A DNA stretch of 32,000 nt from NCBI GenBank assembly GCA_005191425.1, contig SUPR01000007.1:27107-59106 (forward strand). Reading direction: 5' to 3'. Origin of the DNA: Candidatus Helarchaeota ASGARD archaeon Hel_GB_B. GTDB lineage: Archaea; Asgardarchaeota; Lokiarchaeia; Helarchaeales; HEL-GB-B. Under the pieces are notes generated by a model. The model searched no databases and was not told the origin of the DNA. It was given only the letters and a program-made list of their open reading frames with translations. Within the stretch, counting starts at the first letter, position 1, and each line of letters starts with the position of its first letter. Below, piece by piece: positions 26,126-30,196 of the stretch. The translations under genes and the position numbers were made by a program.

Positions 26126-26584
26126 GAATATTTGGATTTTGAAATTGATGTAACTAAATTGAAATTACCTGATCATCCACCAATTCCTAATTTAAAGATA
26201 GTTATTTTCGATGAAACTTATAGTCCAAATAATTTAATAGACATTTTTGTAAAAATTTTTCCAGACGAAATTAATTCGGAAAAAGAAAATGAGTTTAGGC
26301 ATTCCAAACGGAAAAAATACGAAGGCACTTATATTGCACTAATCAATGAAAAAATTATTGGTTTTTTAATCACTGGGATTCTTACATTTAATGACCCACT
26401 TGGCTATATTTTATATTTGGGTGTTTTAAAAAATTTTAGAAGTAAAGGTATTGCAACAGAATTATTAAAAAGGTTTAAATTAGACCTGAATAAAAAAGGT
26501 GTTTCTAAAATACAAGCTCGGATAAAAAAAGATAATTTTTTAGTACTAAAATACATTAATTATTTAGGTTTTAAGCAATTATAA
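26117..26584 (+). CDS. GNAT-family N-acetyltransferase
   Basis: IIGFLIT strand, YILYLGVLKNFRSKGIATELL (motif A, RxxGxA), and N..V.KY...LGF (motif B). Confidence 0.88.
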   Translation: MNNEYLDFEIDVTKLKLPDHPPIPNLKIVIFDETYSPNNLIDIFVKIFPDEINSEKENEFRHSKRKKYEGTYIALINEKIIGFLITGILTFNDPLGYILYLGVLKNFRSKGIATELLKRFKLDLNKKGVSKIQARIKKDNFLVLKYINYLGFKQL

Positions 26585-26623
26585 ATGATCTAACAAAATA
26601 ATCTTTATTGGATAAATTTTTTA

Positions 26624-26671
26624 TAAATATCCTCGTAAATATCTACATAAATACCTACATAAATATCTACA
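26624..26671 (+). repeat. Tandem 12-bp repeat, four copies, consensus TAAATATCTACA
   Basis: TAAATATCCTCG-TAAATATCTACA-TAAATACCTACA-TAAATATCTACA, ending about 33 nt upstream of ATG 26705. Confidence 0.85.
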
Positions 26672-26704
26672 ATCATTTACAAACAAAAATAAAATGTGAC
26701 TTTT

Positions 26705-27546
26705 ATGAAAGTAAGCAGATTAGCTAATTTAATATTAATTTATTTATTAATGTGGGGAATTGCTGAACTTGTTCCTGATTTAATTTTTGGCGATGCATCT
26801 TCATCCAGTGCTTTAATGTTTACAGTATTTGTACCAGTTCAAGAGCAAGGTGGTCATATTTATTTATTAAACCTCCACTTTAGCACTTTATTTGAATTTT
26901 TAATTCCTGTCATTTTTGCACCAATCATGGTCTGGTTAATCTTTAAAGAAATTAAAAAAGAGAAATCGGAAATTGAAGAAAAATCCAAATATTCTAATTT
27001 TTTAATACACTCTTTTACATATCAATTTTCACTATGGTTGTTGAGCTTGGAATTCATTATGTCGGAGATGCTATTGATACACAATTACAATGGTCTCCTG
27101 AAGATATAGATGGCACAATTACTACATTTCCTAAATTAATTGCTTATTTCTTTGATGAGGTACTCGGGCATAAAATCTTATATGCTAGTATGATGTTAAT
27201 TCTTGTCTGTTTATATATCTTTCAATATTGGCACCCTTTAGATTTAGAAAAAAAAGAAACTAATTATTTAAATACGACATTATTATTTATATATGGTCTA
27301 ATTTATGGAATTGCACTTGCTTTTTCTTTTATGGAAGGCCAGAGTGCTTTTGAATATTTATTTATTTGTCTAATCTTATTGGTATCTACACTAATCCAAG
27401 TATTACGAATAAAAGAAAAATTTACAATTAAAATCAAAAAATATCCCTATTCTATATTTTTTATTGCAATTAATGCTGGTGTTATTCTCGTTCTTTTATT
27501 ATATGTCCCACAAATTGGAAATTCTTATCCTTTCTTTCCTCAATAG
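26705..27546 (+). pseudogene. CLN6-like polytopic membrane protein split by a -1 frameshift at T6 (26998-27003); pseudogene, recoded gene, or sequencing indel
   Basis: The two listed ORFs (26696-27109 and 27034-27546) join through the run AAT TTT TTA into one protein of about 280 aa. It carries YISIF...GIHYVGDAI, YFFDEVLGH and MEGQ motifs. Confidence 0.7.
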
Positions 27547-27681
27547 TCAATTTTGCTAGAAAATTCTTCTATTTTATTTTTTTATTTTTATTTTTATTTT
27601 TACAAAAAAATTACTCCATAATAACTCAAACTTTTTTAACATTTTCTTCTTTTTTATGTCATTTTATTTAAACATCAAAAT

Positions 27682-28146
27682 ATGATGATTGAAATGAATA
27701 AGGATAGCGATGATGAATTACCAAATAATCCAATAGAAGCTCAAGGTTTGTTAATTAAGGCAGTTTATAAAAAATTTGGTGATCAAGCATTATCTGTAAT
27801 CGAAGAAGTATTAGGAAAACAAGGCAAAGCCCTTGGACTTAAATTACGGAATAAAATTCCTGATACTCGGCTTTCTACAGTTGCAAAAGCATTTTCCAAA
27901 AGTTTTAGTCAAGATCTCATCAAAGTTATATCTATTTCTGATAAAAAATTTCATATTACTGGTAATAAGTGTCCATTTGGATTAGAAAATACTTCCCGAA
28001 GTTTGTGTGAGGCGGTGATGGCAATTGACCGCGAATACTTTTGTGCTGCTACTGGAAAAAAGGTCAAACTTCAAATTCTTAAGACAGTAGCTGCCGAAGA
28101 CCCTATTTGTGATACTATTTACTTAATTGAAAATGAAAATAAATAA
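27682..28146 (+). CDS. ATC-hydrolase-like (L-2-amino-thiazoline-4-carboxylate hydrolase / V4R-related fold) protein
   Basis: Helical N-terminus KAVYKKFGDQA...GKQGKALG, then KCPF, LCEAVMAIDREY, and ILKTVAAEDPICD Cys pattern. Confidence 0.65.
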   Translation: MMIEMNKDSDDELPNNPIEAQGLLIKAVYKKFGDQALSVIEEVLGKQGKALGLKLRNKIPDTRLSTVAKAFSKSFSQDLIKVISISDKKFHITGNKCPFGLENTSRSLCEAVMAIDREYFCAATGKKVKLQILKTVAAEDPICDTIYLIENENK

Positions 28147-28978: not shown

Positions 28979-30196
28979 TTAGGTTGTATTACTCTTTTTT
29001 TTAGTTACTACTACCATAAACCATTCAATAGTCCCCACGCCATTAAATTTTTTAACAAGTATCCATAATAGAAATATTATTAAAATAGCGAAACCAACCC
29101 ATGCAGGCCATACCAAGATATAATTAAATGTATTTGGAAATAGGAGAATTCCAAAGTGGTGATATATAAATACTGAGAAGGCAATTTTTCCTGTAAACGA
29201 AAATGAATTAAATATCTTGTTGCTTCGCTTTAAATAATCACTATAATAAGCCAATACCGCAAGCATAATAAAATCTGCTCCAAGTGCATAAAACAAATAA
29301 GTCCAATGATTTGGTAAAATAAAATAAGGGAGGCTACTAAAGTTGAAAAACCAAGCTGTGTTCAATTCACTTACATGATGCTGCGCAATTTGATACCATA
29401 ATGAATTTGGGTCTGTTGGAGAACTTGCGCCAAATAATACAGCTATTGTAATAAATGAAATGCCAAAGAAACATAGATAAATTATAAATTTCTTCATTTT
29501 TTCTAAGCCATTTTCATTATCTGAATTATATTTTATTTTATAGAAATATTCTCCGATAATACTCCCAATAAAGGCACAAGCAGACCAGGGTAAAAGTGGA
29601 AAAGCCCAAAAGATGCTTGGAAATGGATAATATAATATATGATCGGCAATTGTACCTCCAACCCCTAAAGAACATAACCAAAGATGTAATGGATAACCTC
29701 CAAATATTATTAAAAAGCTAAGAATGATTCTATAAATTTTATTGATTTGGAGTATATATATCGTGATAATTAAACTGACGCAAATAACTTGAAGGATATA
29801 CCAGCTAAAGAAATCAAACCAATTAACTCCCATATAGCCACCTACTACAAAAGCCATAAAATAATTATATACTACAGAAATTATAAAGAGAACACCTATT
29901 CTTTTAAGCGTATAAATATGGATTTTATGTAAATTCCATCCTGCATCTTTTTTTGAATTAAAACTAATAGCAAGATTTAAGCCAGATAACATTATGAAAT
30001 TTGCGGGCCCAACTGTACTTAAAAAAAAGACATATAACATTTCATACATCCATATATCTGTAGATAATAACCAGCTAGCAGATATATGCCCACCAACTAT
30101 CCAGAAAATTGATATACCCTTTAAAATATCAATAGATTCAATCCTTTCCTTCTTGATTTTTGTAGAATTTTTTAAATTAGTGGTATTAATCGTCAT
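28979..30196 (-). CDS. Multi-pass membrane acyltransferase-like protein (DUF1624/OpgC/HGSNAT catalytic-domain family)
   Basis: N-terminal RIESIDILKGISIF, F..LSG, WYILQVI, FPLLPW, GKIAFSVFIYH, C-terminal GTIEW. About 10 hydrophobic segments. Confidence 0.8.
   Translation of the reverse strand: MTINTTNLKNSTKIKKERIESIDILKGISIFWIVGGHISASWLLSTDIWMYEMLYVFFLSTVGPANFIMLSGLNLAISFNSKKDAGWNLHKIHIYTLKRIGVLFIISVVYNYFMAFVVGGYMGVNWFDFFSWYILQVICVSLIITIYILQINKIYRIILSFLIIFGGYPLHLWLCSLGVGGTIADHILYYPFPSIFWAFPLLPWSACAFIGSIIGEYFYKIKYNSDNENGLEKMKKFIIYLCFFGISFITIAVLFGASSPTDPNSLWYQIAQHHVSELNTAWFFNFSSLPYFILPNHWTYLFYALGADFIMLAVLAYYSDYLKRSNKIFNSFSFTGKIAFSVFIYHHFGILLFPNTFNYILVWPAWVGFAILIIFLLWILVKKFNGVGTIEWFMVVVTKKKSNTT

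Follow-up and report, generated by a model that had tools for sequence, protein, structure and literature searches.

CLN6 and its prokaryotic relatives

Human CLN6 was described as a Ca2+-dependent epimerase of the ER, which converts R,S- to S,S-glycerophosphoglycerol in the synthesis of S,S-BMP (bioRxiv 10.64898/2026.10.07.757477; 10.64898/2026.10.07.757350). Both preprints are dated 9 October 2026. The residues D59, D131, D173, E174, H178 and E227 were found to be required in cells, the variants H127Y and R62H were inactive, and Y182 and Y223 contribute. H178 was proposed as the phospho-histidine nucleophile of a 1,3-phosphoryl migration. The protein has a cavity toward the ER lumen and is a homodimer according to modelling (10.64898/2026.10.07.757477; 10.64898/2026.10.07.757350). 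Prokaryotic relatives are mentioned in neither of the two preprints, and full-text literature searches returned no paper linking CLN6 to archaea or prokaryotes. Archaeal proteins with Pfam CLN6 matches are already precomputed in public collections.

Here we analyzed a CLN6-like gene in a window of 32,000 nucleotides (the whole stretch of DNA under study, to which all positions refer) from the genome of a Helarchaeota archaeon. This Asgard genome has a size of 3.5 Mb and is 93.7% complete; the contig from which the window is taken has 59 kb, and the G+C content is approximately 26-35%. With a probability of about 0.75, we consider the locus to be a Helarchaeota-specific paralog of a prokaryote-wide superfamily which includes eukaryotic CLN6; its product is most likely a phosphoryl-transfer enzyme, and the copy in the window was broken by a lost T. 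An earlier note on this DNA had expected that a prokaryotic version could reveal the biochemical activity of CLN6. This expectation was overtaken when the activity was reported in October 2026, so finding that activity is no longer a motive for interest, and the window copy is also broken. As a recently broken paralog, the locus itself adds little. A small homolog from archaea or bacteria which is modelled with confidence and keeps the catalytic residues would be a practical target for an experimental structure and a test bed for the phospho-histidine mechanism.

Structure of the split gene

The gene is distributed over two reading frames on the forward strand. The following features were assigned, with residues numbered according to the restored T7 form:

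26705-27546, + strand: CLN6-like gene in two frames, defined by its ORFs and the alignment to intact homologs
26705-27004, + strand: N-terminal half in the upstream frame, with TM1, beta-hairpin, TM2 and a K/E-rich cytoplasmic loop; aligns to homolog residues 1-100, layout from the AlphaFold2 model of ortholog P0005
26774-26794, + strand: PDLIFGD motif, residues 24-30, at the outer TM1 end; nearly invariant in the Helarchaeota family, variable in the superfamily
26998-27003, + strand: T6 run with the -1 frame break; heptamer T TTT TTA (26998-27004) in the upstream frame; T7 in other samples
27004-27546, + strand: C-terminal half in the downstream frame, with TM3-TM7 and every catalytic motif; matches Pfam CLN6 weakly and in colinear order over profile positions 82-221
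27055-27069, + strand: H118-x3-D122 in TM3, corresponding to human H127 and D131; H in 125 and N or D in 133 of 136 relatives
27154-27183, + strand: D151-E152-V-L-G-H156-K-I-L-Y160 in TM4, corresponding to human D173, E174, H178 and Y182; D in 134, E in 136 and H in 136 of 136 relatives
27322-27342, + strand: F207-S-F-M-E211-G-Q213 at the outer end of TM5; E211 corresponds to human E227 and F207 stands at the Y223 position; E in 129, G in 116 and Q in 112 of 136 relatives

The upstream frame extends from the ATG at 26705 (MKVSRL...) to a stop codon at 27107-27109; a GTG at 26696 starts a 137-aa ORF version of it. The downstream frame is free of stop codons from 26998 onwards until the TAG at 27544-27546. 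In the earlier note both frames had been joined into one protein, and three strings had been quoted from it, LFYISIFTMVVELGIHYVGDAI, AYFFDEVLGHKILY and FSFMEGQ. All three are present, each in the downstream frame, and the join was confirmed: end to end, the two pieces are colinear with intact Helarchaeota proteins of 279-292 aa, with the aligned junction at KYSNF/NTLF. The frame offset is -1 and the T6 run at 26998-27003 is the only join which preserves the length; addition of one T gives a 280-aa ORF with 0 internal stops. A profile built from the alignment of the Helarchaeota family (A1) was searched against 1.84 billion representatives and returned 131 relatives at E<1e-3. Because of these relatives and of 10 full-length ones (E 4e-66 to 1e-13), the CLN6-like ORF is not a product of chance. 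The closest proteins bear NCBI names that point to Helarchaeota.

Upstream of the gene, about 2.5 tandem copies of CTACATAAATA(C/T) occupy the intergenic positions 26640-26670, 35-65 nt 5' of the start codon. They could represent a promoter element or a binding site.

Origin of the frame break

The T tract was compared with other assemblies and public metagenomes. A 151-nt contig of run X3 contains one extra T behind 26997 and is otherwise identical to the window; a 628-nt contig of run X4 contains the same extra T and 7 substitutions. The frame of this T7 allele is intact. L061, a separately assembled scaffold, has T6 like the window, with 0 mismatches over 1344 nt. The uninterrupted reading frame is absent in the window and in L061 and present in runs X3 and X4. 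We read the difference between T6 and T7 as a real, very recent T7-to-T6 polymorphism, and the window copy as a fresh pseudogene or as a gene with a slippage-prone tract. In this reading, one T was lost from a T7 tract, which breaks the gene in this assembly; translated from the ATG at 26705, the T6 allele would end after 134 aa and lack all catalytic residues. The intact T7 allele exists in other samples, and the genome has two intact paralogs.

Homopolymers are prone to errors, and T6 might be an assembly or sequencing error in an organism which truly has T7 and an intact gene. Neither half shows any other defect, the 151-nt contig differs from the window in nothing except the extra T, and run X2, one of the three runs with the largest share of the sampled words of the stretch, has no contig across 26961-27062 (run X1 covers the stretch scantily). 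However, the separate scaffold L061 agrees with the window in every aligned position, at least 3 recorded contigs encode precisely the 170-aa product which the broken form gives, and a systematic error at a run of 6-7 nt would be unusual if these are short-read data. An error is therefore unlikely in our view.

The split could also be regulatory rather than a damage, if the T6 allele yielded the full-length protein by programmed -1 ribosomal frameshifting at U UUU UUA. The upstream frame reads the heptamer in register, and a -1 slip would give a 280-aa product of homolog-like length. In a genome of the same genus, however, the ortholog (L006, 1501-2379, - strand) is a single intact 292-aa ORF, flanked as in the window by genes for a GNAT acetyltransferase and a UFM1-like protein, and it reads AAT TTA GTC, which is not slippery, where the window reads AAT TTT TTA. 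Every other homolog is a single ORF too, and the near-identical contigs of the two other samples carry T7 in frame. The 86 nt 3' of the heptamer fold no better than shuffled sequences (z -0.54). No RNA data set was found among the public runs matching the stretch. Since the T7 form is intact in two metagenomes and the gene of the same genus is intact without a slippery site, programmed frameshifting is a very improbable explanation of the split, and we retain the recent loss of one T.

A second repeat is located in the T-rich spacer past the stop codon, where a (TTTTTA)n run extends over 27575-27602. L061 is 6 nt shorter than the window, with one gap within 26482-27831, and the read analysis passed over 27563-27610 as a repeat. 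The run may be a hexamer repeat of variable length.

Relationship to CLN6

For the relationship to CLN6 we applied the Pfam profile PF15156, which has a curated cut-off of 27 bits. The C-terminal half of the window protein gave a direct match of 14.2 bits (E 0.029), which is not significant. This match was seen in the C-terminal half of the window protein alone among the 12 A1 sequences used in the Pfam comparison; the full-length orthologs gave none at E<=1, and a PF15156 search of the own genome returned no match. In the strict sense of PF15156 membership, the cut-off is not reached by the window protein.

A connection is provided by a clade of intermediate proteins (A4: P0146, P0144 and P0145), which have 250-317 aa and belong to Asgard archaea of the class Lokiarchaeia. 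The A1 profile matches P0047 with an E value of 2.2e-10, and P0047 and its relatives exceed the CLN6 cut-off; the A4 members reach 40.2-47.3 bits on PF15156 (E down to 2.4e-12) and are thus much nearer to the eukaryotic profile than the window family. A comparison of A1 with A4 by hhalign gave a probability of 99.0% and an E value of 9e-18 over 228 columns. Both families share the DE..GH and EGQ motifs and a C-terminal YPF..Q tail, whereas their identity is only about 22% and A4 has H-x3-N where the window protein has H-x3-D. The alignments of A1 with A4 and of A4 with PF15156 begin at profile position 83 or later. The A4-type proteins are found in archaeal context, and an Asgard genome belonging to the same class also contains this gene. 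When the A4 alignment was used as query at E<=10, the matches comprised the archaeal clade alone and no eukaryotic CLN6 sequence. Among the 136 relatives which were used for all conservation counts, CLN6 was the sole recurrent Pfam family (12 of 136 at E<1e-3).

By this chain from A1 through A4 to PF15156, the window protein shows significant profile homology to members of the CLN6 family and can be placed in a CLN6-like superfamily. The comparisons support a real but very distant CLN6 relative, linked through an intermediate Asgard clade, and the window protein is very probably homologous to CLN6. The earlier note had claimed an archaeal CLN6 homolog and had proposed the Pfam profile as a check. 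The claim stands by way of the A4 intermediate (E 9e-18; 40-47 bits), while the direct check went against it with a score below the cut-off.

Unrelated multi-pass proteins can resemble each other by their hydrophobic composition, and a chance likeness of this kind would explain why the direct CLN6 match lies at noise level. Five family members also show weak matches to the rhodopsin-type family 7tm_1, and the fold is confirmed by no solved structure. On the other hand, all steps of the chain are significant (E 2.2e-10, 9e-18 and 2.4e-12) and refer to one region in a common register, the columns without variation in the family are exactly those whose residues were proven essential in human CLN6, and CLN6 was the sole Pfam match in 7 of 8 tested bacterial members (15-23 bits). 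A mere likeness of hydrophobic proteins is hardly credible in view of these findings.

In the genomes of two A4 members, the A4-clade gene (L003, 6001-6915, GCA_030612265.1; L055, G140) has a 4-nt overlap with an upstream 126-aa ORF which belongs to no known family. This pair of genes occurs in both genomes, and a VIT1 gene is located 3' of the A4-clade gene.

Conservation of the catalytic residues

Vertebrate CLN6 and the window protein have the motifs H-x3-D, Y-x-D-E-x2-G-H-x3-Y and E-G-Q in identical order. The corresponding residues and their conservation in the 136 relatives are:

Human H127, window H118: H in 92%
Human D131, window D122: N or D in 98%
Human D173, window D151: D in 98.5%
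Human E174, window E152: E in 100%
Human H178, window H156: H in 100%
Human Y182, window Y160: variable
Human Y223, window F207: variable
Human E227, window E211: E in 95%

H118, D122, D151, E152, H156 and E211 are all present in the window protein and 92-100% conserved in the superfamily, and seven residues are shared with the human protein (H127, D131, D173, E174, H178, Y182 and E227 in human numbering). The two tyrosines of the human substrate pocket belong to variable columns of the superfamily; Y160 matches Y182, and the window protein differs from human CLN6 by F207 at the place of Y223. This mapping rests on the motif register, on colinear Pfam alignments and on the human strings given in the earlier note. 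These strings fit the residue numbers of the preprints, with H127 and D131 four residues apart, D173-E174-x-x-x-H178-x-x-x-Y182 and Y223-x-x-x-E227. Human D59 has the context LDFGR, in accordance with the published numbering.

In the window protein, the PDLIFGD motif (residues 24-30) has a place similar to that of the human residues D59 and R62, where TM1 ends on the outer side, in a region to which the profile alignments do not extend. Either D25 or D30 is a candidate for the equivalent of human D59. The suggestion that H, D, DE..GH and E form a metal-binding site, made before any database search, agrees with the Ca2+-binding and catalytic residues of the preprints.

Predicted fold and assembly

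An AlphaFold2 model of ortholog P0005, calculated with 136 relatives, reached a pLDDT of 95.7 and a pTM of 0.92. It shows seven helices and, in contrast to human CLN6, a beta-hairpin between TM1 and TM2. The loops alternate between inner ones with K/R and outer, acidic ones without K/R, which is consistent with a topology with the N-terminus inside and the C-terminus outside as in CLN6. The window protein would thus share with vertebrate CLN6 a length of about 280-310 aa, seven helices, a cytoplasmic N-terminus and a C-terminus on the far side of the membrane, the archaeal side being predicted. By helix register, TM3 and TM4 carry conserved residues in their outer-leaflet half, and TM5 carries them at its outer end. 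From this register, H118, D122, D151, E152, H156, Y160 and E211 are predicted to line a pocket in the outer-leaflet half of the membrane.

For two copies of the protein, the prediction gave a score of 0.86 compared to 0.00 for the best control, with a contact agreement of at least 97% and a pLDDT of at least 88. Of 30 proteins solved as pairs, 20 reached the same mark; of 23 solved as single chains, 1 did. The modelled symmetric interface consists of TM3, the start of TM4, the hairpin and the C-terminal tail, and the intact protein is predicted to form a symmetric homodimer, as is also predicted for human CLN6. No similar solved complex was found in the PDB by sequence or fold, so the prediction does not reproduce a complex already known.

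When A1 and A4 were compared with PDB sequences, nothing relevant was returned. Foldseek gave no match in the PDB at E<=0.001, and a wide VIA-align search found generic helical bundles with a best Z of 7.3; neither result implies a novel fold. A feature search of the ESM Atlas returned leads with scores of 0.89-0.91, including one bacterial cluster with 12% PF15156. A Chloroflexota cluster of the ESM Atlas has the same fold (TM 0.71/0.83).

Paralogs, distribution and phylogeny

Three CLN6-like copies were identified in the genome. In addition to the window gene, there are two intact paralogs. One encodes 266 aa and is located on the contig of the window, upstream of it; the other encodes 339 aa and belongs to contig C45. 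In a survey of Asgard archaea, 47 of 400 genomes contained a match to the family profile. Relatives of the short form (about 230-250 aa) were used as seed (A5) for a pattern search over the whole GTDB, which revealed 32 loci. The archaeal loci belong to Njord-, Hod-, Baldr- and Promethearchaeota, Thermoplasmata, Geoarchaeota, Nitrososphaerota, Woesearchaeota and Halobacteria, the bacterial ones to Chloroflexota (many), Cyanobacteriota, Actinomycetota and Gemmatimonadota. The short forms, from Chloroflexota, Cyanobacteriota, Actinomycetota, Njordarchaeota, Woesearchaeota, Halobacteria and others, share the catalytic columns and the fold with the window protein. They differ by their shorter length, and the alignment consensus suggests that the long segment with the TM1-TM2 hairpin is missing.

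The earlier note had regarded the gene as a eukaryotic signature and had named a broad bacterial distribution as the finding that would take this interpretation away. With relatives in four bacterial and several non-Asgard archaeal phyla, the survey gave such a distribution, and the eukaryotic-signature reading falls. Judged by its sequence relatives, the family is broadly prokaryotic and not a signature of Asgard archaea plus eukaryotes.

In a quick unrooted tree, a group of 16 all-Asgard long forms is separated from 31 bacterial and mixed-archaeal short forms by a branch with an SH-aLRT of 95, where both sets come from different searches and long branches occur. The long-form group includes the window gene, both paralogs and the Pfam-positive A4 clade; all of the 11 named long-form matches are Asgard proteins. 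We treat the apparent split between long and short forms as a lead. It is quite improbable that the all-Asgard long-form clade is the direct ancestor of eukaryotic CLN6, perhaps with enzymes that already inverted glycerol-phosphate stereochemistry (sn-3 to sn-1) in the head groups of lipids or in their precursors. Eukaryotic BMP shares its sn-1 (S) configuration with archaeal lipids. If this ancestry were true, the odd sn-1 (S) configuration of BMP would be an archaeal inheritance, and the enzymes would bear on the lipid divide between archaea and bacteria.

In several Asgard genomes two CLN6-like genes are found side by side, at G280:C243:12577-13896, at G281:C140:29238-30854 and in the pair P0025/P0031 (ACTSVI_17395/17390). 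Expansion by paralogs seems to be common in the long-form group.

Possible function

Since the pocket residues match the Ca2+-binding and phospho-histidine residues of human CLN6, a divalent-cation-dependent phosphoryl-transfer enzyme is the most likely function of the intact protein. By analogy, the pocket would bind Ca2+ or a similar cation and the reaction would proceed through a phospho-histidine intermediate, with a glycerophosphodiester head group as substrate on the extracytoplasmic face. The complete description, i.e., cation dependence, a histidine nucleophile and a glycerophosphodiester at the outer membrane face, has about an even chance of being correct. One possible reaction would be a 1,3-phosphoryl migration of the CLN6 type, inverting the configuration of a glycerol. 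Epimerisation of glycerophosphoglycerol itself is rather unlikely, and less to be expected than phosphoryl transfer in general.

The genomic context gives no hint to the substrate, because no neighbour is conserved across the 52 loci compared; no family was common to more than 4 of them. Homologs of CLN8 (TLC) and CLN5 were not found in the 93.7%-complete genome, therefore a BMP pathway of the animal type is not evident here. The window genome differs in this point from the setting of human CLN6, as it does by its archaeal membrane and its frameshifted copy. Archaeal lipids have the opposite glycerol configuration. A prokaryotic homolog would make it possible to ask which role such an enzyme plays in organisms without BMP, including archaea.

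Two neighbours of the gene show similarity to known families. Directly 3' of it, a 154-aa protein (27682-28146, + strand) has a sub-threshold match to MetOD1 (methanogen output domain 1; E 4e-4, 20.9 bits compared to a cut-off of 23.8). At a distance of about 1.4 kb, a 405-aa membrane protein (28979-30196, - strand) matches HGSNAT_cat (heparan-alpha-glucosaminide N-acetyltransferase) with an E value of 1.8e-10 and also Acyl_transf_3. Together with the CLN6-like gene, two genes of this region are thus related to enzyme families of lysosomal diseases.
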